Assembly: GCA_025999335.1 (NCBI GenBank)
Contig: AP024681.1
Location: 615,610-679,609 of the forward strand
Length of the DNA stretch: 64,000 bases
Direction: 5' to 3'
DNA from: Candidatus Parcubacteria bacterium
Lineage (GTDB): Bacteria; Patescibacteriota; Minisyncoccia; UBA6257; HR35
Below the pieces are notes generated by a model that saw nothing but the letters and a program-made list of their open reading frames with translations, did not search any database and was not told the origin of the DNA. A program made the translations under genes and the position numbers. This document shows, in pieces, positions 5,024 to 63,826 of the stretch; the first letter of the stretch is position 1, and the number at the start of each line of letters is the position of its first letter.

Positions 5024-5470
5024 TTATTTTGATGAGTTGTTGACGATATTATTGGTGATATTAAGAGAATTATTAATTTTTTGAATTATAGTTGGCAGAT
5101 CTTCAGTTTTGCTTATAAACTCCAAGCCGCCGAATTTTTTAACCATTTTTGTATAAAGCTGCCCTAATTCTTCTTTTATGTCTAATTTATTTGTTAGCAT
5201 TATTACTTTAATATCTTTACCTACAGGATGCATTTTAAAATTAAATAATGTATCTAAGCCATTCATATTAGGCATAACCATATCTAAAAGGATAAGACTT
5301 GGTTTTGGTTTGAGGTTGTATAACAAATCTAAAGCTTTATTTCCGTCTTCAGCTTCAGCTACTTGAAAGCCGTATTTTTCTAAAGCAATTTTCATCATTG
5401 CTCTGAAATCTTTATCATCATCAACAATTAGGATTAAAGGTTTATTTGTTTCATCATTACTTTGTTGCAT
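5024..5470 (-). CDS. Stand-alone response regulator receiver (CheY-like) with a short C-terminal extension
   Basis: 'ILIVDDDKDFRAMM...LILLDMVMPNMNGLDTL...IMLT' has the REC-domain acidic pocket and conserved Lys. Confidence 0.8.
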   Translation of the reverse strand: MQQSNDETNKPLILIVDDDKDFRAMMKIALEKYGFQVAEAEDGNKALDLLYNLKPKPSLILLDMVMPNMNGLDTLFNFKMHPVGKDIKVIMLTNKLDIKEELGQLYTKMVKKFGGLEFISKTEDLPTIIQKINNSLNITNNIVNNSSK

Positions 5471-10595: not shown

Positions 10596-12112
10596 TTTTG
10601 TTTAATTCCTGGTTTAAAATATTGGGGATATTCATAATGATGTAAAAATATTTTAGGCTCTAATTGCTTTTTATATATTGATGTTGCATTATAATAAAGG
10701 TGGTAATACTCTGCAGAATAGGTTGATAGAAAATTGATAATTGCTTTTTTAGCAAGATTCTCTATTTGATTGCTGGGCTTGATATTTTTTTTAAGTTCTA
10801 TATGGACATATAATTTTTGGTTCATATTTTTGTCATAAACAACTTGCATTGAGAATTTACCCGTAAAGTATTTTTGTAACTCTTTGTTTAATAATGCCCT
10901 TTTTATATATTCAGGATATAAATTAATACCTACTAAACTTACAGCAAAATCAGATCTTTCATAAACATAAACGAAGGGAAGCTTTAAAATTTTGTCTTTT
11001 ATTTTAAATTTTTCTGCTTCTTTAAATATATCAACACCTACCTCTTTTAGTCTTTTAATCATTTCATCAAAGTAAATAACTTCACCTCGATCAGGAAAAC
11101 TATATCTTATAAGAGGTATTGAGTCTCCGTAGCCAGATGCTAAAATTAAACCATCTTTTTCTTCAAACCAAACAATATAAGGATGGTATTGGGCTAGGGT
11201 AGGAGTTCTATTAGCTTCACGAAATACATTTTTAAAAACTTTATCTTTTTCTATAGCGATATGCCTTATAAGATTAGAAAGAGCTGTTTCATGAGCCATA
11301 GCATGTAATTCTATGCTGCCATAAATATTGACATTATCATTAAACATATTTTTAAGATGAAAAATTTTAGCAAAATATACTCTGAGTTCTTCAGGGAATC
11401 CCTCAGCGGCATTAATTATTCTAAATTGTTTTACTTGTTTTAAGTGATTTTTAAACTCATTTAATTCATCCGCGATATCTTTAATAAATGGCGGATAGCC
11501 TATCAATATAACTTGATCAAAATATTTGTAGAATTTGAGAAAGGATTTTATAAACGCTTCTTTATTAACGCCTACAGGAATAATTGTTATTTTATAATTT
11601 TTTTGAGATAAAAATTCAAAAGTTTTATAATTAATAATACCTCCGATCCATATTCCTAAACCAAAACCTATAATAACTAGCGAACTTTTTTTATCTATTT
11701 CGAATTGGTTTTTTAAAATTAATTCGAGAGTATATATATGCTGCAAGTCGTGTTGTTGATTTCTAGGGAAGTAAAATGGTTCTCCAGTAGAACCTGAAGT
11801 AGCTGAAATTGTTGTTGAAGAAATGATGTTTTTATTTGGAAATAAATCAAGATAGTTATATTTTCTTAAGTAGTTTTCTTTGTTCATAATGGGAAGTTTT
11901 TCGAGATCTTTCGAGCCATTTATATCTTTATAATTTATACCGTTATCAAGTAAAAATTTTCTATAAGCAGGCACATGGTTTATTGTAAATTTGATTAAGG
12001 TATTTAAGTTTTCCTTTCCTAGTTTTACCCAATAATCAGGATTTTTTGTTTTAAGATCTCTTAACCGTTCATTTATGTTAGTTGGGTAAGAGAAATAATT
12101 AAAGTCTTTCAT
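10580..12112 (-). CDS. Adenylate-forming enzyme, phenylacetate-CoA ligase / coenzyme F390 synthetase-like (PaaK/CapK family)
   Basis: AMP-binding P-loop-like 'SATSGSTGEPFYFPR' and overall size; 16-nt overlap with the downstream gene suggests an operon. Confidence 0.5.
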   Translation of the reverse strand: MKDFNYFSYPTNINERLRDLKTKNPDYWVKLGKENLNTLIKFTINHVPAYRKFLLDNGINYKDINGSKDLEKLPIMNKENYLRKYNYLDLFPNKNIISSTTISATSGSTGEPFYFPRNQQHDLQHIYTLELILKNQFEIDKKSSLVIIGFGLGIWIGGIINYKTFEFLSQKNYKITIIPVGVNKEAFIKSFLKFYKYFDQVILIGYPPFIKDIADELNEFKNHLKQVKQFRIINAAEGFPEELRVYFAKIFHLKNMFNDNVNIYGSIELHAMAHETALSNLIRHIAIEKDKVFKNVFREANRTPTLAQYHPYIVWFEEKDGLILASGYGDSIPLIRYSFPDRGEVIYFDEMIKRLKEVGVDIFKEAEKFKIKDKILKLPFVYVYERSDFAVSLVGINLYPEYIKRALLNKELQKYFTGKFSMQVVYDKNMNQKLYVHIELKKNIKPSNQIENLAKKAIINFLSTYSAEYYHLYYNATSIYKKQLEPKIFLHHYEYPQYFKPGIKQKWAIK

Positions 12113-19927: not shown

Positions 19928-21151
19928 ATGCGATACGGTATAGTTGGATTAGGTATTTCAGGCAAAGCATTAGTAGATATTTTATTGAAGCTTGGGCACA
20001 AGCCAGTAGTTTTTGAATTAAAAAGTAGAAAGAGTTTTAAGCAAGAGGAAATTGAAAAATTAGAAAAAGAAGGAGTAGAGCTTATTTTTAATTATCAGCT
20101 AGATGATTTTAAAAAAGTTGATTTAGTTATTTTGTCTTCAGGAATAAAACACGATTTTTTCAAGCAAAATAAAATTAAATTTATCTCCGAGCTTGATTTT
20201 GTTTGTTCTTTTTTGGAAGACAAAGATTATATTTTTATAACCGGAACGAAAGGGAAGGGAACAACAGCAATTTTTACAAAGTTTTTATTTGATGAATTAG
20301 GTTTGAAAACTTTTTTAGGCGGGAATATTGGGGAAAGCGAATATTCAAAACCAGCTGTTTATGCAATTTTCGAGTCTGCTGATATTTATCTTTTCGAAAC
20401 TTCAAGTTTTCAATTAAGATCAAGTTTTCAAGCTAAGCCTTTGATTTATGCAATTGTTAATTTGGGAATCGATCATTTAGATCGGCATAATTCTTTAGAA
20501 GATTATTGGCAATCAAAATTAAAATTTTTAGAAAAAGCGAAATATTGGATTAAGCCTAATGAGTTTGAAATTTTAAAAAATGTTCCTGAAGAATTCAAAA
20601 ATAATTTTCCGGGAGAGCATAATTTGTATGACTTGAGTTTAGCTTATAGAATTTTAGAGGTTTATGCTAAAGAGAAAAATTTGGAAATTCCCGAGGATTT
20701 ATTAGCAAAAGCGGTTAAAAAATTTCCTAGACAAAAATTTGTTTTGCAATATGAAGGTGAAATTAATGGCGTAAAAATTTATAATGATTCAAAATCGACT
20801 CATTATTTATCTTTAAAAGCAAGTTTGAATTCATTTAATCAGCCAGTAATTTTAATTTGCGGTGGTTTAACAAAAGGTTTTGATTTTTCGGAAATTGAAG
20901 ATGTTATTAAGAAAAAAGTTAAATATGGAATAATTATTGGCAGAGATAAAGAGAAAATAGCGGAATCTTTTGATAAAAGCAGAATATTTTTAGCGGAAAA
21001 TTTAGAAGAAGCTATTAATAAAGCTTTAGAAGTCTCTCAAAGTGGTGATGTAATTTTATTTTCTCCAGGATGTGCTTCTTTTGATATGTTTCAAAATGCA
21101 ACAGAAAGAGGTGAGATTTTTTCAGAATTAATTAAAAAATTTGCTAAATGA
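19928..21151 (+). CDS. murD: UDP-N-acetylmuramoylalanine--D-glutamate ligase
   Basis: N-terminal 'GIVGLGISGKAL', Mur ligase P-loop 'ITGTKGKGTTA', 'NDSKSTHY' (MurD NDSKATN-like). Confidence 0.65.
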   Translation: MRYGIVGLGISGKALVDILLKLGHKPVVFELKSRKSFKQEEIEKLEKEGVELIFNYQLDDFKKVDLVILSSGIKHDFFKQNKIKFISELDFVCSFLEDKDYIFITGTKGKGTTAIFTKFLFDELGLKTFLGGNIGESEYSKPAVYAIFESADIYLFETSSFQLRSSFQAKPLIYAIVNLGIDHLDRHNSLEDYWQSKLKFLEKAKYWIKPNEFEILKNVPEEFKNNFPGEHNLYDLSLAYRILEVYAKEKNLEIPEDLLAKAVKKFPRQKFVLQYEGEINGVKIYNDSKSTHYLSLKASLNSFNQPVILICGGLTKGFDFSEIEDVIKKKVKYGIIIGRDKEKIAESFDKSRIFLAENLEEAINKALEVSQSGDVILFSPGCASFDMFQNATERGEIFSELIKKFAK

Positions 21152-21933
21152 AGATTTATATTGGTACATCAGGTTGGCAATATTATCATTGGTATGGTAA
21201 GTTTTATCCGGAAAACTTAAAAGCAAAAGATTTTTTAAATTTCTACGCAAAGCATTTTAAAACCGTTGAAGTTAACACAAGTTTTTATCATTTTACTAAA
21301 GAATCAACTTTTAAAAATTGGTTAAGTCAAGTTCCCAAAAATTTTTTGTTCTCAATCAAACTCCATCGTCTTTTTACTCATTTTCGAAGATTAAAATTAA
21401 AAAAAGAAGATAAAAGAATTTTAAAAGAAACAATTGATGGTTATAAAGTTTTAGGTAAAAATTTAGGAGTAATTTTAATTCAACTACCACCAGGACTTAA
21501 AAAAGATATCAAACTATTAAAAAATTTTTTGAAAATATTAAAAGATATTAGTTCGTATAAGTTCGCGGGTAAAAATGCTGTTCGCAGTAGTTCGCGTTAT
21601 TTTTTAAGATTCGCTATTGAATTTCGCCATAAATCTTGGCTTGATAAAGAAGTTTATAAGATTTTAAAAGAAAATAAAATTGCTTTTGTTATTTCTGACT
21701 CACCGAAATGGCTAACTGATATTGTTAAAACCGCTGATTTTGTTTATGTTCGTTTTCATGGCAAACCAAAGCTTTTTGCTTCAAAATATTCAAAAGAAGA
21801 ATTGAAAGACTATGCTGAGAAAATTAAAAAATTAAAACCTAAAATTTTATTCGCTTACTTTAATAATGATTTTGAAGGTTATGCTGTAGAAAATGCTTTA
21901 CAACTTAAAAGAATCTTAACTATATTAAATTAG
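21148..21933 (+). CDS. DUF72 (YecE-like) family protein carrying an in-frame GTTCGCR repeat insertion
   Basis: 'IYIGTSGWQYYHWYGKFYP', 'EVNTSFYH', 'FRHKSW' are DUF72 hallmarks. Confidence 0.65.
   Translation: MKIYIGTSGWQYYHWYGKFYPENLKAKDFLNFYAKHFKTVEVNTSFYHFTKESTFKNWLSQVPKNFLFSIKLHRLFTHFRRLKLKKEDKRILKETIDGYKVLGKNLGVILIQLPPGLKKDIKLLKNFLKILKDISSYKFAGKNAVRSSSRYFLRFAIEFRHKSWLDKEVYKILKENKIAFVISDSPKWLTDIVKTADFVYVRFHGKPKLFASKYSKEELKDYAEKIKKLKPKILFAYFNNDFEGYAVENALQLKRILTILN
21551..21597. repeat. Short copy of the GTTCGCR repeat element, inside the DUF72 coding sequence
   Basis: gttcgtataaGTTCGCGggtaaaaatgctGTTCGCAgtaGTTCGCGtt; locally GC-rich; reading frame is maintained (encodes SSYKFAGKNAVRSSSRYF). 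Confidence 0.4.
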
Positions 21934-25134: not shown

Positions 25135-26010
25135 TTAACTCAATTTTAACATACCAACTCCTTGTCTTAAAATTTCAATTTTTCCATTTTTTAATTTAAT
25201 TAAAGTTGATGGTTTACCAACAATTTTACCAGTATTGTAATAAACAACATTATTTCCAAAGTATTTTTTCGCTTCAGTTATTGTTTTTGCCGGTTCATAA
25301 CCTTCCCAATTTGCTGAAGGAGCAACTAAAGGACCAGAAATTTTTAAAATGTTTCTTAACCATTTTGGTTTTGGCATTCTAAAAGCCAATGTTTTTGTAC
25401 CCCGATGAAGGTATTTAAACTTTTTAATTTTGTTTTTATCACTAATATCTAAAATCACCGAAACCGGTCCCGGCCAAATCTTTTTGAGGAAAGTTTTTAT
25501 ATCACCTGCTCGAATGTTAACCGAATTATTTGGTTTTTCATTCGAGTAAGTTATTCGGTTATCATTCGTGTGATCTATTTGCGTTGAATTAACGTCAACG
25601 CCAAAAATTTTTAAATCATCAAAATCAGAAATCAAAGTAATCATTGGTTTTTGTGGCGATCTTTTTCTTAATTTATAAATTCTTTCTACTGTTTTTTTAT
25701 TTAAAGCACTGCCGCAAATCCCATAAATTGTATCAGTTGGCATAACTGCAATTACGCCTTCTTTTAAAAGTAAAGCAAGTTTTTTCCAAGAATTTTTATA
25801 AGAACCAAAGTAACCGCCAATTGTATAATCATTTTTTATAATACGATGACAAGGGATTTTAGGGTTTTTATTTTTAGCTAAAATATTTCCTATAACTCGG
25901 TAAGCTTTTTTATTACCGGCTAATTTTGCTACTTCTTGATATGTTGAATATTTACCTGGTTTTATTTTTTTAATTATTCTTAGTACTTTATCTTTAAAAT
26001 GCATATTCAC
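25135..26010 (-). CDS. Fusion protein: N-terminal MGMT/Ogt-like methylated-DNA-protein-cysteine methyltransferase domain plus C-terminal YrdC/Sua5 (TsaC) threonylcarbamoyl-AMP synthase domain
   Basis: N-terminal 'YSTYQEVAKLAG...AYRVIGNILAKNKNPKIPCHRII' (PCHRV active-site Cys); C-terminal 'GVIAVMPTDTIYGICGSAL...RIYKLRKRSPQKPMITLISD' (YrdC). Confidence 0.65.
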   Translation of the reverse strand: MNMHFKDKVLRIIKKIKPGKYSTYQEVAKLAGNKKAYRVIGNILAKNKNPKIPCHRIIKNDYTIGGYFGSYKNSWKKLALLLKEGVIAVMPTDTIYGICGSALNKKTVERIYKLRKRSPQKPMITLISDFDDLKIFGVDVNSTQIDHTNDNRITYSNEKPNNSVNIRAGDIKTFLKKIWPGPVSVILDISDKNKIKKFKYLHRGTKTLAFRMPKPKWLRNILKISGPLVAPSANWEGYEPAKTITEAKKYFGNNVVYYNTGKIVGKPSTLIKLKNGKIEILRQGVGMLKLS

Positions 26011-41044: not shown

Positions 41045-41143
41045 CGTGTTTTAAATTTTAAATACCCCGACTGGGTATATTATATCACAATTTTGATTTA
41101 TTTGACAAATATGTTATAATTGAAATAAAAGTATTAATAATTT

Positions 41144-41250
41144 GTCGCGAACTAATACAAACTGTACGCGAACCACTGCGAACTATATCAGTATTGTGGT
41201 ATCAAAAAGTTCGCAACAGTTCGCGAGAAGGTTCGCAAGGGTTCGCGATT
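41144..41250. repeat. GTTCGCR repeat element (promoter-proximal copy)
   Basis: tcGCGAACtaatacaaactgtacGCGAACcactGCGAACtatat...aaaaaGTTCGCAacaGTTCGCGagaagGTTCGCAaggGTTCGCGat: GCGAAC units followed by GTTCGC units, forming a large imperfect inverted repeat; 35 nt are near-identical to 42596-42631. Confidence 0.5.
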
Positions 41251-41263
41251 TGCAAATCCAAAA

Positions 41264-43474
41264 ATGAAAAAATATATTTGTCCAATGGGATGCCTTGAGC
41301 CTCAAGATCAGCCCGGAAATTGTCCTGTTTGTGGAATGAAGCTTGTTGAAGTTGAGGAAAAATATCACAAAAAACACAAAGAAAAACACGAAGAACATTT
41401 AGATAAACATCAAGGCCATCGAACTGAAGATTTTCTCAAAAAATTTTGGTTATCTTTGATTTTAACTATTCCGATAGTTCTTTATTCTGATATTTTTCAA
41501 AAAATTAGTAACATAAAATTACCTTCTTTTGAGGGAATTCAATATTTGCCTTTTGGGCAGACAGGTTTAATTATGCTTCTTGGTTCTATTGTCTTTTTTT
41601 ATGGTGGTTTTGTTTTTCTTGTTGGTGCTTATCGAGAAATAAAAGCAAAGAATCCGGGAATGATGACTTTGATTGCTTTAGCGGTAGTATCTGCTTATGT
41701 TTATAGTGTTTTTGCTGTTTTATTCAAAATTGGACATGAATTTTTCTGGGAATTAGCAACCTTAATTACGATTATGCTTTTGGGACATTATTTTGAAATG
41801 AAATCAGTTTCTTCAGCGCAACGAGCTTTACAGGAGATTGAAAAGTTATTGCCTGATATCGCGGAATTAGAAGACGGAAGAAAAGTGAAATTAGATGAAT
41901 TAAAGTTAAATGATATTGTAATTGTTCGGCCCGGAGGAAAGATTCCTGCTGATGGTATTGTTATTGAGGGAAAATCTGAAGTTAATGAAAGTATGATAAC
42001 TGGAGAAAGTAAACCGGTTTTAAAAGAAATTGGTTCAGAAGTCATTGCTGGAACAATTAATGGTGATGGAGTTTTAAAAGTCAAAGTAACAAAAATTGGC
42101 GAAGAGACATTTTTGGCAGGAATTAAAAGATTAATTAAAGAAGCGCAAGCATCAAAATCAAAACTTCAAGTTTTAGCTGATGTTTTTGCGAAATATTTGA
42201 CTTTTATTGCTATAGGTATAGGTTCTTTGAGTTTTATTATTTGGCTTTTGTTACAAAAAAATCTTGCTTTTGCCCTTGAAAGATTGGTAACAGTTTTGAT
42301 TGTTGCTTGTCCTCATGCTTTAGGTTTAGCAGTTCCCTTAGTTGTGGCAATTTCAACATCTTTAGCAATTCATAACGGCTTTTTAATTAGAAACAGATTA
42401 CAACTTGAGCTGGCAAGAAAAATAGATGTTGTTTTATTTGATAAAACTGGGACCTTAACTTCTGGAAGATTTAAGGTAAGAGAAATTATAACGCGAACCG
42501 ATGCGAACAACGATGACAACCGCGAACTTATGCGAACAGATAATGACAAAGTTCGCGAGAGTTCGCAAGAGTTTGCGTCTGAAAACAATGTTCGCAATAG
42601 TTCGCGAGAAGGTTCGCAAGAGTTTGCGATATTACAATTAGCAGCCTCCTTAAATCAATACTCCCAACATTTTATTGCTCAAGGGATTTTAGAAAAAGCA
42701 AAAGAGCAGGGAATTAAACTTTTAAAAGTTGAGGAATTTGAAAATCTAACTGGTAGAGGAGTTAAAGGAAAAATTAATGGAAAAACTTATTATCTTGGCG
42801 GTAATAATTTGTTAAAGGAACTGGGTTACCCGAATGAAAACCGAATAAATTACCCGAATGAAAATCAAATTGGAACAACGGTCTATCTTATTGATGAAAA
42901 TAAAAATCTTTTAGGAGCAATTGTGTTGGAAGATGAAATCCAGGAAGAATCTTTTGAAGCTGTTAAGAATTTACATCAAATGGGAATTAAAGTAGCAATG
43001 ATAACCGGTGATAAAAAAGAAGTTGCTGAAAAAGTTGCCAAGGAGTTAGGAATTGATGAGTATTTTGCTGAAGTTTTACCAGAAGATAAAGTTAATAAAG
43101 TTAAAGAACTTCAAAAAAGAAATTTAAAAGTAATGATGGTTGGCGATGGAATTAATGACGCTCCGGCATTGATGCAAGCTGATGTTGGTGTGGCAATTGG
43201 GGCAGGTACAAATGTGGCTATTGAATCAGCGGGAATAATTTTAGTCAGAAATGATCCAAGAGATATTGTTAAATTAATTGAGCTTTCAAGAAAAACTTAT
43301 CGCAAAATGATTGAAAACCTCTTTTGGGCAACTGGCTATAATATTGTTGCTTTACCACTCGCAGCTGGGATTTTAGCTTTTAAAGGAATCTTTCTTTCCC
43401 CAGCTTTAGCTGCAATCTTTATGTCTCTTTCAACAGTAATTGTTGCTGTTAATGCGTTGGGGTTGAGAGGTTGA
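41264..43474 (+). CDS. copB: Copper-translocating P1B-type ATPase (CPH motif, His-rich N-terminus; CopB-like)
   Basis: 'CPMGC...CPVCGM' N-terminal metal site; His-rich 'KYHKKHKEKHEEHLDKHQGH'; TM 'ACPHALGLA'; 'DKTGTLT', 'GDGINDAPAL', 'MITGD'. Confidence 0.9.
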   Translation: MKKYICPMGCLEPQDQPGNCPVCGMKLVEVEEKYHKKHKEKHEEHLDKHQGHRTEDFLKKFWLSLILTIPIVLYSDIFQKISNIKLPSFEGIQYLPFGQTGLIMLLGSIVFFYGGFVFLVGAYREIKAKNPGMMTLIALAVVSAYVYSVFAVLFKIGHEFFWELATLITIMLLGHYFEMKSVSSAQRALQEIEKLLPDIAELEDGRKVKLDELKLNDIVIVRPGGKIPADGIVIEGKSEVNESMITGESKPVLKEIGSEVIAGTINGDGVLKVKVTKIGEETFLAGIKRLIKEAQASKSKLQVLADVFAKYLTFIAIGIGSLSFIIWLLLQKNLAFALERLVTVLIVACPHALGLAVPLVVAISTSLAIHNGFLIRNRLQLELARKIDVVLFDKTGTLTSGRFKVREIITRTDANNDDNRELMRTDNDKVRESSQEFASENNVRNSSREGSQEFAILQLAASLNQYSQHFIAQGILEKAKEQGIKLLKVEEFENLTGRGVKGKINGKTYYLGGNNLLKELGYPNENRINYPNENQIGTTVYLIDENKNLLGAIVLEDEIQEESFEAVKNLHQMGIKVAMITGDKKEVAEKVAKELGIDEYFAEVLPEDKVNKVKELQKRNLKVMMVGDGINDAPALMQADVGVAIGAGTNVAIESAGIILVRNDPRDIVKLIELSRKTYRKMIENLFWATGYNIVALPLAAGILAFKGIFLSPALAAIFMSLSTVIVAVNALGLRG
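42491..42631. repeat. GTTCGCR repeat element inserted in-frame (about 47 codons) in the ATPase N-domain just after DKTGTLT
   Basis: acGCGAACcgatGCGAACaacgatgacaacCGCGAACttatGCGAACag...aaaGTTCGCGagaGTTCGCAagagtttgcg...atGTTCGCAataGTTCGCGagaagGTTCGCAagagtttgcgat; encodes RTDANNDDNRELMRTDNDKVRESSQEFASENNVRNSSREGSQEFA. Confidence 0.5.
43386..43468. repeat. Left direct repeat (attL-like): the in-gene 3' end of the ATPase
   Basis: 57/57 identity (43412-43468 vs 47615-47671) plus about 25 nt at roughly 80% identity upstream. Confidence 0.55.
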
Positions 43475-43824: not shown

Positions 43825-45096
43825 ATGTTAATTAAGGAAAGAAGGCTAGAGGGAATATCAAAAATTAAAATATATAAAAATACTAGATGGTATGATTTAC
43901 CATTCATATGGCAATATGCGGCTTTTTTTTCTAATTTTAAAAAAAACAATATCTTTGGAGTAGGATCTTCATTGATTTCTCGAAAAATAGCTATTACTCG
44001 AGCTTTTTATGAGTTGCTAGAAAGATTTTCGCTTAGCTACCCTTCTCTTAATAAATTTTTAAGGCTCAGTTTTTCTGAAATAGACGAAGATAGAACAATA
44101 CCGTACAATGTTTGGTTCAAGAAAAATGATGTTGAAAAAAACCAAAAAATAAATCCAAAATTAATTAAAAATATACCTTCTTTAGATGATAAATTATACT
44201 TTGCGTGGGGTTACAATTTAATTAATAGAGAAAAAGTTTTAATTCCTGCACAGTTAATCTATGTTCCTCCAAAAAGATTTATCGAAAAAATAATTCGTGA
44301 GTCAAATAGTACCGGGGCTGCTGCTGGTAAAAATTTAAAACAATGTTTGATTAAAGGTATTTTAGAAATTTTAGAAAGAGATGCGTTTATAAATTATTAT
44401 TTAAACGAATTTTTTGGTGAAAGGATAGATCTTAGCAGATTTAAAAATATTAAATGCTTTATTAATAAATTTAGAAAATACCATTTAGAAATATATTCTT
44501 TTTATCTACCTTCCGATATAGAAATTTTTAATGTGGTGACTTTCTTAATAGATAAATCAGGCATGAGTCCAATTATAAATTGTGGTTCTGCCTCAGGGTT
44601 TGAGATCGAAAATTGTATTTTAAAAAGCCTTGAAGAATCTCTTCAGGTTTTAATGTGGATAAGATTACTTTCTTTAACTAAAAGAATTAGTACTATAGAT
44701 CTTAACACTCTTGAGAACAGGGGATTTTTTTGGATGGATAATAAAAAATTGAAATTAATATATCAATGGGTAAATAAATCAAGAAAACCAAAACAACTTA
44801 ATTCTTTAATTAAAAAGCTTAAAAATAACAAAAATAACCGTTTAAATTATCTTATTGAGCAAATTAAAAATCATAATTATAATATATATTATTCTGAAAT
44901 TACTTCTGAAAAATTCAAAAAATTAAAAGTAAAAGTAATTAAAGTGATAATTCCTCAATTGCAATGGATATATTTAGGCGAAGATTTTAAATTTATTAAT
45001 TGGGAACGAATTAAAAAGATCAGAGAAATTAACAATCTTAAACCTTTTGATGTAGATGCTAACAAATTAAATAAAGTGCCACATTTTTTTTTATAA
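43825..45096 (+). CDS. YcaO-domain cyclodehydratase (TOMM 'D' protein)
   Basis: 'GVGSSLISRKIAITRAFYELLERFSL' and 'SNSTGAAAGKNLKQCLIKGILEILERDA' are YcaO ATP-binding signatures; C-terminal '...VPHFFL'. Confidence 0.8.
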   Translation: MLIKERRLEGISKIKIYKNTRWYDLPFIWQYAAFFSNFKKNNIFGVGSSLISRKIAITRAFYELLERFSLSYPSLNKFLRLSFSEIDEDRTIPYNVWFKKNDVEKNQKINPKLIKNIPSLDDKLYFAWGYNLINREKVLIPAQLIYVPPKRFIEKIIRESNSTGAAAGKNLKQCLIKGILEILERDAFINYYLNEFFGERIDLSRFKNIKCFINKFRKYHLEIYSFYLPSDIEIFNVVTFLIDKSGMSPIINCGSASGFEIENCILKSLEESLQVLMWIRLLSLTKRISTIDLNTLENRGFFWMDNKKLKLIYQWVNKSRKPKQLNSLIKKLKNNKNNRLNYLIEQIKNHNYNIYYSEITSEKFKKLKVKVIKVIIPQLQWIYLGEDFKFINWERIKKIREINNLKPFDVDANKLNKVPHFFL

Positions 45097-45113
45097 CTAT
45101 TTATAACATCTAA

Positions 45114-45893
45114 ATGAAAGAGAAATTAAGTTATGTAATATTAAAAAAATTAGCTTCAAATTATGAAAATGTCAACAATTTTGAATTTTTAAAATACTTT
45201 AAAAAATCCTCTATAGATAAATTCCATAAAACTATCAAAAATTATCCCGAAAGCTGGAAAAAAATTAATTTTAAAACATACGCAAGGTTCTCCAATGTTT
45301 TGCTTAATAAAAATTTTGGAAAGGATGAGCTTTTAAAAATTATTTTTAAAAGAAGAAGTGAGAGAAATTTTCAAAAATATCCTTTAAGTTTGAAAGAAAT
45401 TTCTTATTTTCTCCTAGGAGCAACAATTACCAAGGTTTTTGATAATAATTTCGATTATAACTCATTTAGAGCTTATCCTTCGGCTGGAGCCCGTTACTCT
45501 CTTGAGGTATATTTATTTTTATTATCATCAAAAGATCTAAAAAGGGGCTTGTATCATTATAATGTAAGATTTCATTGTTTAGAGTATATGTGGGATTTTA
45601 AGAAAAAAGATTTAATAAAAATTTTTAATCAAAAATTTATTCTAAATAGTAGTTTAATAATTTTTATTACTTGTGTTATTAAAAGAATTTATCCTAAATA
45701 TGGTGAAAGAAGCTTGAGATTGGCTCTATTAGAGGCAGGACATTTAGCTCAAAATTTTTTACTGTTAGCTACAAAATTAGGGCTGAAATCTTGTCCAGTG
45801 GGTGGTTTTAAAGAACAAAAAATTTTAGAAATTTTAGATATATCTCAGGAAGAACAAGAATTGCCCCTTTATTGTATAATAATAGGAAAATGA
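45114..45893 (+). CDS. SagB-type (McbC-like) FMN-dependent dehydrogenase (TOMM 'B' protein)
   Basis: 'FKRRSERNF', 'YPSAGARYSLEVYLF', 'LLEAGHLAQNF', 'CPVGGF'. Confidence 0.8.
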   Translation: MKEKLSYVILKKLASNYENVNNFEFLKYFKKSSIDKFHKTIKNYPESWKKINFKTYARFSNVLLNKNFGKDELLKIIFKRRSERNFQKYPLSLKEISYFLLGATITKVFDNNFDYNSFRAYPSAGARYSLEVYLFLLSSKDLKRGLYHYNVRFHCLEYMWDFKKKDLIKIFNQKFILNSSLIIFITCVIKRIYPKYGERSLRLALLEAGHLAQNFLLLATKLGLKSCPVGGFKEQKILEILDISQEEQELPLYCIIIGK

Positions 45894-47539
45894 CATTAGA
45901 AATGATTTTATCTAAAGAAAAAGGACCGTTGAGAGAACATATTTTTTGTGATATTAAGTTTTTGAGAATCGGCACTAAAGAACTAATTACAGAGAGCAAA
46001 CTTATTGTTCGTTCAAATGAAAAGGTAGCTTTAATTGGAAGAAATGGAAGTGGGAAATCAACTTTAATTAGATTGATAATTAGTTTTTATGAAAAAAGAG
46101 ATGTTTCCGAAGATTTAGAATTTTCTGGTAAGATTTTTATTTCCCCTGAAATTAAGATAGCTTATCTACCTCAAGAAATTAAACTACAATTTTCTGGTAC
46201 TGTTGAAGAATATTTAGAATGGAGAGGTGGTGAATTTGTAAAACTAGTTAAAAGATATAAAGAGTTTTCCGAAAAAGGAGAATTTTCTTTAGAAGAAGCA
46301 GAAGAATATTCACGAATAATTGAAAGAATGACTCAATTTAATTTATGGGATTATGAAGGAAAAAGAGATAGAATTTTAAAAAAATTAAATATTAGATCAG
46401 AAATTCTAAATAGAGATGTCCAGGAGATATCTGGTGGTGAAGCTACAAAAATAACTTTAGCTGGAATTCTACTTTCTGATGCTAATTTCTGGATTCTTGA
46501 TGAGCCAACTAACAATTTAGATAAGGATTCTATAGATATCCTTTTTGAAGAAATGAGAAGGTTTAGGGGAGGAATTTTATGTATTACTCACGATAGAAGA
46601 CTTTTAAATATTTCTTCAAGAATTTTTGAGATAGATGAAGAAACTAAAACTTTAAAAGTTTGGGGAGGTAATTATGAATTTTATAAAAAAGAAAAGGAAA
46701 AAGAATTTTTGGGGAGGATGAAAAAATTTGAGGAACAAGAAAGAAAAAGGAAAAAATTAGAAAAAGCTATTGAGGAGTTAAAGAAAAAATCTCAAGAATT
46801 TGAAAAAATTGGCCGTGATGCTTTTTACAGAGCAAAAGGATCTAAAATAGCTAAACAAGCTAAGGTTCAAGAAGAGAGAATTTTAAGAGAACTTTCTCAG
46901 CTTACCGAACCTCAGCCTCCAGAAAGGCCAGAGTTTCCTAAGTCACAACCAGAAGTTTTAAAAGGAAATGTGCTTTCAATTAAAGGCTTATCTTATTCTT
47001 TTAATGATAAGATTTCAATTAATATTCCTTATTTAATTCTAGAAGCCGGGGAAAGGCTTTTAATAGAAGGACCAAACGGTTCTGGTAAAACAACTTTGAT
47101 TAGACTCATTCTTGGTGAAATAAAACCATCAGAAGGAAAAGTAACTCTTAAAGAAAGTATTATAATTGGATATTTACCTCAATCACCTAAAATCGAAAAT
47201 ATCAGCCAAAAAGTTTATCAATTTCTAAAAACTGAACATAATATTAATGAAGGGGAGACTAAAGCTATTCTTAATAGAATGAAAATACCACATGTTTTCA
47301 ATTTGACTTTAAAAGATCTAAGCATTGGCGAAATAAGAAGATTACAACTTGCTGCTATTTTATTTAAAAATCCAGACCTTTTAATTTTGGATGAGCCAAC
47401 TAATCATCTTGATATTTATACCATTGAAGAACTTGAAGTGGCGTTGAAAGATTATAAGGGAACAATAATTTTTGTTTCTCATGATAAATATTTTATAAAC
47501 ACTTTAAAACCAACCCAAAAAATAGTTTTAAAAAGATAA
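45872..47539 (+). CDS. ABC-F family ATPase (two ABC domains, no TM, charged interdomain linker); candidate self-immunity/ribosome-protection protein
   Basis: Walker A 'GRNGSGKST' and 'GPNGSGKTT'; signature 'SGGE'/'SIGE'; 'ILDEPTNNLD'/'ILDEPTNHLD'; KE-rich linker at about 270-320; 22-nt overlap with the SagB-like gene. Confidence 0.7.
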   Translation: MYNNRKMTLEMILSKEKGPLREHIFCDIKFLRIGTKELITESKLIVRSNEKVALIGRNGSGKSTLIRLIISFYEKRDVSEDLEFSGKIFISPEIKIAYLPQEIKLQFSGTVEEYLEWRGGEFVKLVKRYKEFSEKGEFSLEEAEEYSRIIERMTQFNLWDYEGKRDRILKKLNIRSEILNRDVQEISGGEATKITLAGILLSDANFWILDEPTNNLDKDSIDILFEEMRRFRGGILCITHDRRLLNISSRIFEIDEETKTLKVWGGNYEFYKKEKEKEFLGRMKKFEEQERKRKKLEKAIEELKKKSQEFEKIGRDAFYRAKGSKIAKQAKVQEERILRELSQLTEPQPPERPEFPKSQPEVLKGNVLSIKGLSYSFNDKISINIPYLILEAGERLLIEGPNGSGKTTLIRLILGEIKPSEGKVTLKESIIIGYLPQSPKIENISQKVYQFLKTEHNINEGETKAILNRMKIPHVFNLTLKDLSIGEIRRLQLAAILFKNPDLLILDEPTNHLDIYTIEELEVALKDYKGTIIFVSHDKYFINTLKPTQKIVLKR

Positions 47540-47588: not shown

Positions 47589-47671
47589 CATCTTTTTTCT
47601 CCCCAACTTCAGCAGCAATCTTTATGTCTCTTTCAACAGTAATTGTTGCTGTTAATGCGTTGGGGTTGAGA
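47589..47671. repeat. Right direct repeat (attR-like): duplicated ATPase 3' end with its own stop codon
   Basis: Identical 57-mer; ends '...GLR-stop' and is followed directly by a hairpin terminator. Confidence 0.55.
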
Positions 47672-56053: not shown

Positions 56054-57457
56054 TTAAAGCTTTTGAGTAATTTTAATAATATTCATATTTTTTCTATCAT
56101 AAACATAATAAATTACATATTTACTATCTGAAGAAAATGCTAAATAAGGTAATATGTAAGGTAATATGTATTCAAATTTTTCTCCTTCTATACCATCAAC
56201 AACAATAAAATTCTGACTATCTTTGCTACTTACTATATAAGCAAAATGCTTGCCATTAGGAGAAAAAGAAAAAAATTTTATATCTTCTGCATCCGGCTCT
56301 TTTTTTTCTTGACCGTCAATTACTATAAAAGAATTATTATCTTTGTAAGCTATATAAGCAAAATGTTTGCTATCTTTAGAAAAATATAAATTCGATATAG
56401 AATCATATTTTGTTTGTTCTTTGTTATTAAGTACTACAAATGCTTTTTTATTTTGAACAGCTACATAAGCAAAATGCTTGCTGTCAGGAGAGAAAGTTAA
56501 AGAAGATACAAGATCATATTTTTTACCTTCTTTACCGTCAAAAATAACGAAATTTTTATTGTCTTTATTGGCAACATAGGCAAAATGTTTACCATTGGGA
56601 GAAAAAATCAATTTATAAATAATAGAATCAGTTTTTTCTTTATTATCTGATATTACGATTTCTTGATTATCTAAAACAAGATAATATTTTTTACATTTTG
56701 CCGTACCTGGATAATGGTTATCGTTTAAACAATTTTGACCTTTTATATAAGCAAAATGTTTACTATCAGGAGAAAAAGTTAAAGAAGATATAAAATCATA
56801 TTTTTTACCTTCTTTACCGTCAACGACAATAAATTGTTTACCATCTTTAGTGGCTATATAAGCAAAATGCTTGCTGTCAGGAGAGAAAGTTAAAGAATAT
56901 ACAAGATCATATTTTTTACCTTCTTTACCGTCAAGAACTACTGCTGCTGTATTGTTTACAAACACTGCATAAGCAAGACGTTTGCTATTAGGAGAAAATA
57001 TTATTGGATACACATGTTCATACTTATATTTTTTTATTTCTTTATTATCTAAAACAACAAAGCGACTACCAAACTCTTCTGCTACATAAGCAAAATGCTT
57101 ACTGTCAGGAGAGAAAGTTATTGTATAAAAAAGTATGTAGTCATATTCTTTCCCTTTTTTATAATCATCTAAAATTATAAAATACTTATTTGTGTTTGTT
57201 TTTACAATAATAGCCGAACGTTTAGAATTATCAGCAATTCGTAGATATGTAGGATACAAATCATTAAAATTAAGCTTATATATTATTTCTTTTGTGATTT
57301 TTTGATTAAGATCATCTGTTTTTTGTTTAGTTAAATTTATTAATTGTTCACTATTATTAGATGTTGAAAATTGTTGCGCCGATGTCGGATTATAATTACG
57401 AGTAAAGATAAACAATAATAAGAAAATTAAAAACAATATTCTTTTATGCTTATACAT
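56054..57457 (-). CDS. Secreted tandem-repeat (beta-propeller-like, PD40/TolB-like) protein
   Basis: Signal peptide; about nine repeats of 'TFSPDSKHFAYIA.KDGK.FIVVDGKEGKKYD'; the repeats are also near-identical at the DNA level. Confidence 0.5.
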   Translation of the reverse strand: MYKHKRILFLIFLLLFIFTRNYNPTSAQQFSTSNNSEQLINLTKQKTDDLNQKITKEIIYKLNFNDLYPTYLRIADNSKRSAIIVKTNTNKYFIILDDYKKGKEYDYILFYTITFSPDSKHFAYVAEEFGSRFVVLDNKEIKKYKYEHVYPIIFSPNSKRLAYAVFVNNTAAVVLDGKEGKKYDLVYSLTFSPDSKHFAYIATKDGKQFIVVDGKEGKKYDFISSLTFSPDSKHFAYIKGQNCLNDNHYPGTAKCKKYYLVLDNQEIVISDNKEKTDSIIYKLIFSPNGKHFAYVANKDNKNFVIFDGKEGKKYDLVSSLTFSPDSKHFAYVAVQNKKAFVVLNNKEQTKYDSISNLYFSKDSKHFAYIAYKDNNSFIVIDGQEKKEPDAEDIKFFSFSPNGKHFAYIVSSKDSQNFIVVDGIEGEKFEYILPYILPYLAFSSDSKYVIYYVYDRKNMNIIKITQKL

Positions 57458-61548: not shown

Positions 61549-61602
61549 AAAATATTTAAAAACAACATTCCAACATTCTTAAGAATGTTGGAATGTTAGC
61601 TT
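61549..61602. repeat. 54-bp repeat containing a perfect 17-bp-arm palindrome (copy 1)
   Basis: aaaatatttaaaaacAACATTCCAACATTCTTAAGAATGTTGGAATGTTagctt. Confidence 0.5.
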
Positions 61603-63772: not shown

Positions 63773-63826
63773 AAAATATTTAAAAACAACATTCCAATAT
63801 TCTTAAGAATGTTGGAATGTTAGCTT
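63773..63826. repeat. 54-bp palindrome-containing repeat (copy 2; 53/54 identical to copy 1)
   Basis: aaaatatttaaaaacAACATTCCAATATTCTTAAGAATGTTGGAATGTTagctt; the single C-to-T change keeps a G-U pair if transcribed from the + strand. Confidence 0.5.

Follow-up and report, generated by a model that had tools for sequence, protein, structure and literature searches.

Palindromic heptamer arrays in the leader and coding sequences of Parcubacteria genes

The window, by which we mean the whole 64-kb stretch of DNA analysed here, contains a gene for a P1B-type copper-translocating ATPase (41264..43474, plus strand). Pfam recognizes HMBD, E1-E2_ATPase and HAD hydrolase domains in its product, which matches at 100% a Parcubacteria MAG protein in NCBI with the annotation copper-translocating P-type ATPase. 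The public gene call begins 7 codons later than the ORF in the window. A second gene encodes a DUF72 family protein (21148..21933, plus strand). Three clusters of the heptamer GTTCGCR are associated with these genes. Copy A is located in the 5'UTR of the ATPase gene, copy B inside its coding sequence and copy C inside the DUF72 gene. The hexamer GTTCGC has 25 exact matches on the two strands of the window, compared to 5.97 ± 2.2 expected, and none of 100 shuffles of the window reached this count. Nineteen of the 25 matches are inside the three clusters. The GC content of the copies is 0.46-0.47, compared to 0.264 in the whole window. A GC-rich GTTCGCR repeat in three clusters had been described in an earlier note on this DNA; these counts establish that the repeat family is real and strongly GC-enriched.

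Copies A and B are complete elements with mirror-image arms. Copy A (41144..41250, no strand assigned) is a palindromic repeat of 107 nt. Its left arm (41146-41183) is composed of CGCGAAC, TACAAAC, CGCGAAC and TGCGAAC, starting at 41146, 41156, 41167 and 41177. A loop (41184-41208) separates it from the right arm (41209-41247), in which GTTCGCA, GTTCGCG, GTTCGCA and GTTCGCG start at 41209, 41219, 41231 and 41241. Copy B (42491..42631, plus strand) is larger, at 141 nt, with 4 units in the left arm (42492-42537) and 7 in the right (42551-42628). Copy C (21551..21597, plus strand) contains 4 right-type heptamers (21551-21596) and no left arm. The arm layouts are therefore 4+4, 4+7 and 0+4, the unit lists admitting CpG-to-TpG variants of the heptamer. 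The units are spaced by 10, 11, 12 or 19 nt. Selection for G·U pairs in RNA was considered for the GTTTGC variants and rejected. In the left arm the variants read GCAAAC, which amounts to one kind of CpG-to-TpG change on both strands.

The ends of copies A and B, CGCGAAC ... GTTCGCG, constitute terminal inverted repeats. RNA folding, which the earlier note had proposed, established the hairpin potential of both: long hairpins are predicted for copy A (-43.7 kcal/mol, z -5.4) and copy B (z -5.6), and none for copy C (z +0.6). The statement that all copies are inverted repeats thus applies to A and B; C is a half element with one arm. In a strict census of inverted arrays of tandem 6-mers, copies A and B are the only ones in the window, and 30 shuffled windows contain none. 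The two copies have an exact 22-nt stretch in common, and 44 nt at 91% identity, so the 35-nt stretch reported to be nearly identical between them is upheld. None of the three copies carries an ORF of its own. An Rfam search of the window gave no match at the gathering threshold, and no rRNA was found in it.

Copy A ends 13-16 nt upstream of the ATG at 41264. A promoter-like TTGATT-16-TATAAT is located upstream of it and ends at 41120, so copy A would be transcribed. A separate and unique palindrome, ATACCCCGACTGGGTAT, is found further upstream at 41062-41078. The related contig L128 contains a counterpart of copy A at the equivalent place, with about 91% identity, similar to that of the flanks.

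Copy B (TRTDANNDDNRELMRTDNDKVRESSQEFASENNVRNSSREGSQEFA, aa 410-455) is in frame in the ATPase, where the phosphorylation domain meets the nucleotide-binding domain. It had been placed directly after DKTGTLT; it instead starts 10 residues later, after ...SGRFKVREII. Copy B replaces 27 nt of loop codons present in the empty allele. The 46 residues previously ascribed to it are indeed inserted, but they take the place of a 9-residue loop, and the net gain is 37. No target-site duplication was found at copy B, and no direct repeat is common to the window and L128 in comparison with the empty allele. Four of the six frames are stop-free through copy B, which none of 3000 random segments equals. In an AlphaFold model calculated with an MSA, pLDDT is 46-56 inside the insert, compared to 85-91 on either side (a single-sequence run gave a pLDDT of 41). 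The model is consistent with the earlier suggestion that the insert forms a surface loop.

Copy C is in frame in the DUF72 protein (SYKFAGKNAVRSSSR). Its insert was placed by alignment of DUF72 orthologs, since the alignment with solved structures was too divergent. The insertion is in frame as described before, and adds about 15 residues rather than about 16. A second family of repeats, with the units NCGAAT and ATTCGN, is also present. It forms a small hairpin (25519..25575, minus strand) located in frame in an ORF that fuses MGMT to TsaC (25135-26010, minus strand), corresponding to about 25 extra residues compared to solved TsaC structures. A one-armed remnant of this family is found in the ATPase (42828..42859, plus strand), with the units ACCCGAAT, AACCGAAT and ACCCGAAT giving YPNENRINYPNEN. 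It corresponds to about 6 extra residues compared to ATPase orthologs, and pLDDT is low at aa 523-534. ACCCGAAT is not enriched across the window, and only local clusters support the second family. Three genes in the 64 kb carry in-frame inserts of such kind.

Comparison with orthologs established the presence and absence of the inserts at both the ATPase and the DUF72 sites. Among the 52 closest ATPase orthologs, about half have no insert at the site of copy B but a plain loop of 9 aa (xFxxLSExE). Empty-site and insert-bearing members are interleaved in an NJ tree of the ATPase orthologs. An ortholog with 80% identity (L122) is found in a contig with 0 GTTCGC units in 22 kb. At the site of copy C, an insert is present in 8 of 120 DUF72 orthologs and absent from the other 112; GTTCGC-like inserts are found there only in the 5 closest relatives. 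A universal, ancestral segment, an alternative named in the earlier note, is therefore not what the orthologs contain. The ATPase in L128 contains 6 inserts, all in frame, and its site equivalent to copy B is occupied by an unrelated heptamer family.

The left and right arm modules, each of about 45 nt, recur at other sites, in other genes and in other Parcubacteria genomes, and the suspicion that the copies are unrelated low-complexity sequence falls with this observation. AATGTTCGCAATAGTTCGCGAGAARGTTCGCAAGRGTTCGCGAY and its mirror are found in copies A and B and in L121 and L120. Additional in-frame hosts include a ROK kinase-like ORF (L120) and long ORFs (L070, L018). In L121, a related ATPase contains, all in frame, three to four GCGAAC units, a GxxExxY domain and nine GTTCGC units. 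The embedded domain matches TIGR04256 with 115 bits against a cut-off of 35, which assigns it to the GxxExxY family (TIGR04256 / PF13366). The right arm in L121 is 91% identical to that of copy B over about 87 nt, and the ATPase gene itself is 76-85% identical. Element identity across genomes is 89-92%, only modestly above gene identity. L121 also contains a one-armed copy (11775-11816). In L105 the arrays are expanded in tandem. The same design with other heptamers is found in L125, L124, L126/L161, L157, L159 and L138. In each of at least five heptamer families, left and right arms are invariably reverse complements of one another.

The GxxExxY domain is often found inside other proteins. 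In about 40 of the best 150 GxxExxY matches, the domain lies within a long protein, between arm peptides. The hosts are Asn synthase, GatB, LeuRS, LepA, RecG, RtcB, DHFR, GT2 and transketolase, and all named sources belong to the Parcubacteria group. Insertion sites are located near conserved motifs: after DKTGT in the ATPase, between helicase motifs in RecG and inside the G domain of LepA. These observations show that the arm modules are common to the window copies and a nuclease-bearing copy, and that in-frame insertion of GxxExxY domains is general. NCBI names one GatB and one LeuRS 'GxxExxY protein'. The architecture does not hold throughout the family: on viral contigs, most GxxExxY genes have no flanking arrays. 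The strict module pattern was found at only 2 metagenome loci and on no viral contig. Among the matches listed for the loose pattern GTTCGCRNNNGTTCGCRN{2,14}GTTCGC on genome contigs, most are chance occurrences in genomes of high GC, and the informative ones amount to only about 10 loci from low-GC CPR/Cloacimonadota. Two genes in L124, one for a four-helix bundle and one for GxxExxY, are each located between inverted heptamer arrays. Similar heptamers (xACAGAT) accompany ORFs of two unrelated types, S23p (a four-helix bundle) in Coxiella and GxxExxY in L124, which weakens the case that the nuclease reads the heptamer.

We conclude that the three GTTCGCR clusters probably represent a non-autonomous, IVS-like palindromic element that is translated through, A and B as complete copies and C as a half copy. 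In relatives, inverted heptamer arms surround a small ORF, as in the 23S IVS, which suggests that the window copies are ORF-less IVS-like derivatives. The element consists of a left arm of about four CGCGAAC/TGCGAAC units and a right arm of about four GTTCGCA/GTTCGCG units in mirror order, with the units about one helical turn apart. It would be the ORF-less form of an IVS-related element, whose full-length form contains a GxxExxY PD-(D/E)XK nuclease of about 120 aa between the same arms. Copies would insert into transcribed regions, represented here by the leader and coding sequence of copA and by a DUF72 loop, and the intragenic ones would be read through by the ribosome. The heptamer contains no stop codon in any of the six frames, and a 10-nt period cycles through the frames. 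A copy of suitable length would therefore merely add a hydrophilic and poorly ordered surface-loop peptide, and the host protein would survive. Copies would decay by CpG-to-TpG changes and by arm loss, as in copy C.

We infer that the element spreads at the DNA level. Spread would be driven in trans by a cognate GxxExxY nuclease recognizing the heptamer arrays. The nuclease may trigger break repair or gene conversion, which would let one heptamer lineage overwrite another at an occupied site. A trans-acting GxxExxY partner in the source genome is hypothetical, and tBLASTn and HMM searches found no GxxExxY gene in the 64-kb window. Recombination between ATPase alleles could also explain why one site is held by different families, since copA is often transferred. 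Two points against our explanation are the absence of a target-site duplication and the replacement of a 9-codon loop where a simple interruption would be expected.

Selection could instead keep the copies for a function. The hairpin in the 5'UTR would tune the stability or translation of the copA mRNA, and the loop peptides would be functional in the ATPase. The location of copy A in a transcribed leader agrees with this, and so does its retention at the equivalent place in L128 with an identity like that of its flanks. However, by our reading, the variants between the window and L128 represent CpG decay on both strands and do not preserve pairing. The presence of an unrelated heptamer family at site B in L128, the low structural confidence of the insert and the many orthologs that function without it also make such exaptation unlikely.

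A role at the RNA level is still harder to sustain. The arms would pair in the mRNA, and the insert would be excised by an RNase III-like activity and the ends rejoined, so that it is never translated. The architecture matches that of rRNA IVSs excised by RNase III, strong hairpins are predicted, and related ORF families (23S_rRNA_IVP) are found in CPR rRNA insertions (PMC11270868). If inserts were removed in this way, frame and stops would vary freely, yet every insert in 120 near-full-length ATPase and 120 DUF72 orthologs keeps the frame. The one-armed copies (C and that in L121) cannot form a stem and are in frame nevertheless. We know of no bacterial pathway that would rejoin an mRNA after such excision. 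Conservation of the frame in all inserts, together with the four open frames in copy B, argues for translation rather than removal, and in-frame translation of the inserts is well supported at the sequence level.

Two other explanations are very improbable. In the first, the inserts are flexible linkers of local origin, immobile and unrelated from locus to locus, produced in permissive loops by tandem duplication and slippage of a GC-rich heptamer. The varying unit numbers and the tandem expansion in L105 are in line with this, as are two features of the insert-bearing ATPase orthologs: none keeps the ancestral 9-aa loop, and the insert boundaries match secondary-structure boundaries. But the extended similarity of intergenic copy A to intragenic copy B is not expected from it, reverse-complement arms in so many heptamer families are not a product of slippage, and recurrence of the modules across sites, genes and genomes largely refutes it. 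In the second, the arrays are operators for a regulator of the copper locus, such as a metal-responsive repressor, with secondary sites inside genes; copy A does lie between the promoter-like site and the copA start codon, with units one helical turn apart as in many operator arrays, but the same elements are found in DUF72, ROK kinase-like and other unrelated genes, orthologous copA loci have no arrays, and the palindrome ATACCCCGACTGGGTAT is presumably a better fit to the known form of CsoR-type operators.

The translated-through element can be compared with several known systems. Rickettsia palindromic elements (RPEs) are short palindromes present in many copies in a small AT-rich genome, and many are in frame in housekeeping genes and encode fold-compatible peptides (PMC10969869). 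Similarly, the window element is a palindrome of about 100-150 bp in multiple copies, in frame in unrelated genes and absent from many orthologs. Unlike RPEs, the window copies are found in another phylum, and their arms are tandem heptamer arrays. Heptamer lineages replace each other at one site, and a nuclease-bearing full-length form exists; to our knowledge, no autonomous RPE has been found. Homology to the RPE-1 to RPE-10 consensus sequences is unlikely, given the different phylum and the heptamer-array arms.

MITEs such as Correia (Neisseria) and ERIC are also small, non-autonomous, multicopy and bounded by inverted repeats, with some inside transcripts and occasional in-frame fusions (PMC10969869). 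The window element differs in having no target-site duplication and repeated heptamers in place of a single terminal inverted repeat. Its end-sharing full-length relative encodes a GxxExxY PD-(D/E)XK protein, not a known or DDE transposase. The likeness to RPEs and Correia-like MITEs drawn in the earlier note therefore holds for the behavior of colonising ORFs in frame and not for the family, given the heptamer-array arms, the absence of a target-site duplication and the nuclease in a relative. Nothing points to kinship with RPEs or Correia elements. REP/BIME elements with RAYT are likewise short palindromes that vary between lineages and are possibly matched to an associated protein. REPs are extragenic, however, and linked to Y1 (IS200/IS605-like) transposases, and no such gene accompanies the window elements.

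An architectural parallel is provided by the 23S rRNA IVSs of Coxiella, Leptospira and Salmonella, which share the inverted-repeat stem, the tandem heptamers and a transcribed host gene. In Coxiella, terminal inverted repeats and a variable number of tandem GACAGAT heptamers precede a small ORF (PMC4990558). IVSs are located in rRNA helices and excised by RNase III, whereas the window elements are in an mRNA leader or coding sequence, keep the frame and are apparently translated. The window copies contain no small internal S23p ORF, the relatives carrying GxxExxY, and they are not located in 23S helix 25 or 45. Inteins and free-standing homing endonucleases also place an in-frame nuclease segment beside conserved housekeeping motifs, at sites reused across lineages. 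In contrast to inteins, many different sites per gene are used here. No Hint/intein family was detected in the window ATPase or in the hosts with embedded nuclease domains, so the insert should stay in the mature protein. Copy B is bordered by I|T and A|I, which does not fit the intein pattern of an N-terminal nucleophile and, at the other end, HN followed by C, S or T.

A broader reading is possible, and we offer it tentatively. Parcubacteria may harbor an unrecognised class of invasive elements that insert in frame and do not splice, each composed of a GxxExxY nuclease between lineage-specific inverted heptamer arrays, and the window copies would be the ORF-less tail of this class. Such elements would enter conserved sites in housekeeping genes (P-type ATPase, LepA, RecG, GatB, RtcB, DHFR and others) and be produced solely as a domain within the host protein. 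They would decay to hairpin minis, and lineages with different heptamers would overwrite them at precisely the same boundaries. If true, this would be a homing-like system independent of both RNA splicing and protein splicing. Our search of the literature on GxxExxY, PF13366, CPR MITEs, RPE-like elements and IVS heptamers found no description of such elements in protein-coding genes.

These results extend the RPE phenomenon of selfish palindromes inside proteins to CPR bacteria, where it is apparently common. They would tie hairpin minis to a full-length form with the functionally uncharacterized nuclease GxxExxY and to the 23S rRNA IVSs, which have long lacked an explanation, and this link provides a concrete hypothesis for the nature of both. 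If the nuclease reads heptamer arrays, it would represent a new family of programmable-looking DNA-recognition modules. In-frame inserts would also explain part of the odd length variation and misannotation of Parcubacteria proteins, and they could serve as a natural guide to the loops of conserved enzymes that tolerate insertion. If the insert is translated, the insert-derived peptide VRNSSREGSQEFAILQLAASL is expected.

The GTTCGCR copies of the window are best explained as ORF-less, IVS-like palindromic elements composed of heptamer arrays, which lie in transcribed DNA and are translated in frame. On this account, their full-length form contains a nuclease of the GxxExxY family (PD-(D/E)XK). 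The window is very AT-rich (GC 0.264) and contains 25 GTTCGC matches on the two strands (6.0 ± 2.2 expected), a number attained by no shuffle. Nineteen of them lie within three clusters: copy A (41144-41250) in the leader of the copper ATPase gene, copy B (42491-42631) in the same gene, and copy C (21551-21597) in the gene of a DUF72 protein (21148-21933). Their GC content is 0.46-0.47 each. These are the places named in an earlier note.

Heptamer units were called with CpG-to-TpG variants allowed. In copy A, four left units (CGCGAAC, TACAAAC, CGCGAAC, TGCGAAC) are mirrored perfectly by four right ones (GTTCGCA, GTTCGCG, GTTCGCA, GTTCGCG). Copy B has four left and seven right units, and copy C has four right-type units and no left ones. 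The units are spaced by 10, 11, 12 or 19 nt. Copies A and B have 22 identical nt and 44 nt at 91% identity in common. Long hairpins are predicted for A (z = -5.4) and B (z = -5.6), every heptamer being paired with the unit that mirrors it; folding of copy C gave no hairpin (z = +0.6). In a census of inverted arrays of tandem 6-mers, A and B were the only hits in the window, and 30 shuffled windows had none. Based on the counts, clustering, folding and census, the observation is real, with three corrections. The inverted-repeat structure is found in A and B, and C is a half element. Copy B does not directly follow DKTGTLT but starts 10 residues past it. Since it takes the place of a 9-residue loop, the protein gains 37 residues net and not the full 46.

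The ATPase is P1B-type (41264-43474), with HMBD, E1-E2_ATPase and HAD hydrolase domains. Both it and the DUF72 protein match proteins from a 680-kb contig of an NCBI ‘Candidatus Parcubacteria bacterium’ MAG (locus tags KatS3mg097) at 100% identity. A promoter-like TTGATT-16-TATAAT upstream of copy A (10 of 12 matches, extended TG) ends at 41120, which would place copy A in the 5′ UTR. The possibility that the arrays are operators of the copper locus is weakened by a palindrome, ATACCCCGACTGGGTAT (41062-41078), that occurs once in the window, between the divergent AhpC-like and ATPase genes. We take it to resemble CsoR-type copper-repressor operators, and by this analogy it is the better candidate for a copper-responsive operator.

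Comparison of orthologs indicated that B and C are insertions. In about half of the 52 closest ATPase orthologs, DKTGT and SxHF are 35 residues apart and connected by a plain xFxxLSExE loop. The others have, precisely where copy B lies (site B), inserts of 13-242 residues. Empty and occupied orthologs are interleaved on a neighbour-joining tree from 624 well-occupied columns, also inside the clade of the window ATPase. No GTTCGC units were found in 22 kb around the 80%-identical ortholog P0002. The equivalent position of copy C is empty in 112 of 120 DUF72 orthologs. Related, decaying versions (ISSRESLQ, SQRFAVNENKVRISLR and others) are confined to the five closest relatives, consistent with copy C as an old, half-lost copy. 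Presence of the insert thus varies among the orthologs of both genes, and the segments are not a universal ancestral linker.

The element is also found elsewhere. A genome scan was noisy, yet AT-rich CPR loci with true arrays are among the matches listed. A ROK kinase-like ORF (L120/L129) has three in-frame inserts, one of which is the full hairpin form (...RTDTNNDNNHEPIRTN...NVRNSSRESSQWFA), and loci L070 and L018 have arrays within long ORFs. Alignments revealed a right module, AATGTTCGCAATAGTTCGCGAGAARGTTCGCAAGRGTTCGCGAY, and its mirror left module common to copies A and B, L120 and the ATPase locus L121, so the copies are not unrelated low-complexity sequence. The related metagenome contig L128, 82-91% identical in DNA to the window over the ATPase locus, has copy A at the same copA-leader position. 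Where copy A differs between the two, and in the GTTTGC/GCAAAC variants, CpG has become TpG on both strands, which is a sign of decay and not of compensatory change. Arms can expand as arrays, as contig L105 shows: at 459-585 and 1903-2105, a ~44-nt GCGAAC left module is amplified three to four times in tandem, always in the same orientation, and each array immediately follows the stop codon of one of two paralogous genes that end in ...LYEATK.

L121, from another Patescibacteria MAG, encodes an ATPase (P0014) 74% identical to that of the window. Its A-domain site contains three to four GCGAAC units, a 120-residue domain and nine GTTCGC units, in a single frame with the host. This domain is a genuine member of the GxxExxY family (TIGR04256, 115 bits; PF13366 PDDEXK_3). 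The right arm is 91% identical to that of copy B over ~87 nt, and the left arm has the layout of that in copy A. The ATPase genes themselves are 76-85% identical, and the insertion sites of the L121 element and copy B differ. Because arm identity and layout match this nuclease-bearing element, the window copies look like L121-type elements with the ORF deleted. No GxxExxY gene was found within the window.

The array-flanked design is general, with a heptamer that varies by lineage. ATPase P0033, encoded by L125, contains a GxxExxY domain at the same post-DKTGT site between ACGCGGA(T/A) and ATCCGCG units. Free-standing GxxExxY genes are flanked by CACAGAT/ATCTGTG in L124, CACGAAT/ATTCGTG in L157 and L159, and CTACAAATG/CATTTGTAG in L126 and L161. 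A four-helix-bundle gene in L124 (TIGR02436, ‘23S rRNA IVS protein’ family) is flanked by CAGGGT/ACCCTG. Most GxxExxY genes of viral contigs have no flanking arrays, so arrays are not universal for the family. In L124 (600-2370 of a 4.5-kb Omnitrophica contig), the four-helix-bundle (23S rRNA IVS protein/Avd-like) and GxxExxY genes each lie between co-oriented housekeeping genes, with their own inverted arrays. In L157, L159 and L126/L161, the last left-arm unit provides the start codon of the GxxExxY gene (CACGAATG, CTACAAATG), which the stem would sequester in RNA. The same architecture has been described for the Coxiella 23S rRNA intervening sequence (IVS), in which terminal inverted repeats form a stem excised by RNase III and a variable number of tandem GACAGAT heptamers precedes the S23p ORF (PMC4990558). 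In CPR bacteria, rRNA insertions are reported to contain ORFs of the 23S_rRNA_IVP family (PMC11270868).

In-frame inserts are widespread in Parcubacteria. The ATPase alignment contains at least 10 insertion sites, each filled in some orthologs only, and the insert peptides decode different heptamers, including SSRESSQEF (GTTCGC), TQINAD...NPRKSA (CGCGGAT/ATCCGCG) and TDQFGFETD...NPYKSV. DUF72 orthologs have the same patchy occupancy at three sites. The L128 ATPase has six in-frame inserts. Within 23 kb of L125, three genes contain seven CGCGGAT-type arrays, all in frame; arrays of this family are absent from the window and from L122, the locus of P0002. Site B in L128 is occupied by an unrelated array of 8 ACRCRGAT and 6 ATCMGCG units with exactly the boundaries of the window insert (...gaa att ata | ... 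| tta caa tta gca...), and site 532 of the L128 ATPase gene contains a chimera whose left arm is of CGCGGAT type and whose right arm is of GTTCGC type. Reuse of these sites may reflect either specific targeting or overwriting of residents by the currently active lineage of a genome. No target-site duplication was found at the insert site, and the ancestral loop codons are missing from all insert-bearing ATPase orthologs. A GC-rich in-frame insert (…SPAHSMRQFGSLDVPLDSSPEATQPSARLSPTASAGTSLG…) at the L128 A-domain site (5108-5248), which recurs at other positions in the ATPase orthologs P0003, P0010 and P0026, has no heptamer units and seems to represent a further family of elements that invade coding sequence.

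A free-standing GxxExxY protein, used as query in a full phmmer search, retrieved 9,927 relatives. Among the best 150, about 40 are long proteins in which arm peptides flank an internal GxxExxY domain, and some entries are misnamed ‘GxxExxY protein’. By Pfam, the hosts include asparagine synthase, GatB, LeuRS, LepA (inside the GTPase domain), RecG (between DEAD and Helicase_C), RtcB, DHFR, GT2 glycosyltransferase and transketolase, and every named source belongs to the Parcubacteria group. One site is reused in seven LepA representatives and another in eight RecG representatives, adjoining strongly conserved motifs, which recalls the sites of inteins and homing endonucleases. Unlike inteins, no splicing domain was detected in these hosts or in the window ATPase.

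The inserts could instead be removed from RNA. Near-universal preservation of the frame, with up to six inserts per gene, speaks against this and argues that they are translated. GTTCGCR is stop-free in all six frames and the 10-nt period shifts successive units through the frames, so stops are possible only in spacers. Four of six frames are open over the 141 nt of copy B, a number not reached by any of 3,000 segments of equal length drawn at random from the window. All coding copies of the GTTCGC lineage have the same orientation and register (VRNSSRE[GS]SQEFA), as would be expected if they descended from a cassette with arms and nuclease continuous in frame with the host. In an AlphaFold model of the ATPase (60-sequence alignment, mean pLDDT 79), copy B follows the last strand of the P domain and precedes the first helix of the N domain, with pLDDT of 46-56 inside the insert and 85-91 on either side.

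The reading of an in-frame, ORF-colonising palindromic element was right in substance, given orthologs without the insert, modules in other genomes and behaviour like that of Rickettsia palindromic elements (RPE), which are in-frame palindromes inside genes. We infer that the element would spread at the DNA level, driven by the nuclease. RPE behaviour and IVS architecture are known; the literature searched gave no account of such elements within protein-coding genes, and there is a real chance that the wider class is new.

Several other repeats are found in the window. In a single minus-strand ORF (25135-26010), an MGMT-like DNA-binding domain (aa 9-71) is joined with a TsaC/Sua5 threonylcarbamoyl-AMP synthase domain. 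A small CGAAT/ATTCG hairpin of a second family (25519-25575) lies in frame in this ORF, where it corresponds to about 25 residues that solved TsaC structures lack. Three ACCCGAAT-type units (42828-42859) encode YPNENRINYPNEN in the ATPase, in a stretch that is shorter in orthologs and uncertain in the AlphaFold model. The final 78 nt of this gene (43391-43468) recur 4.2 kb downstream at 94% identity (47594-47671, intergenic, after the ABC-F gene). The two enclose a YcaO/nitroreductase-like/ABC-F block (43825-47539), apparently a gene cassette whose insertion duplicated or restored the 3′ end of the ATPase gene. A 54-nt repeat (61549-61602 and 63773-63826, 98% identity) brackets a 2.2-kb segment with two genes. 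It holds the palindrome AACATTCCAACATTC-TTAA-GAATGTTGGAATGTT, each arm of which consists of two tandem units with an 8-nt period, and may represent an operator or a further small palindromic element. Eight copies of a 53-nt core repeat (56232-57133; spacing 111-171 nt, 66-96% identity) probably reflect a protein module repeated on one strand.
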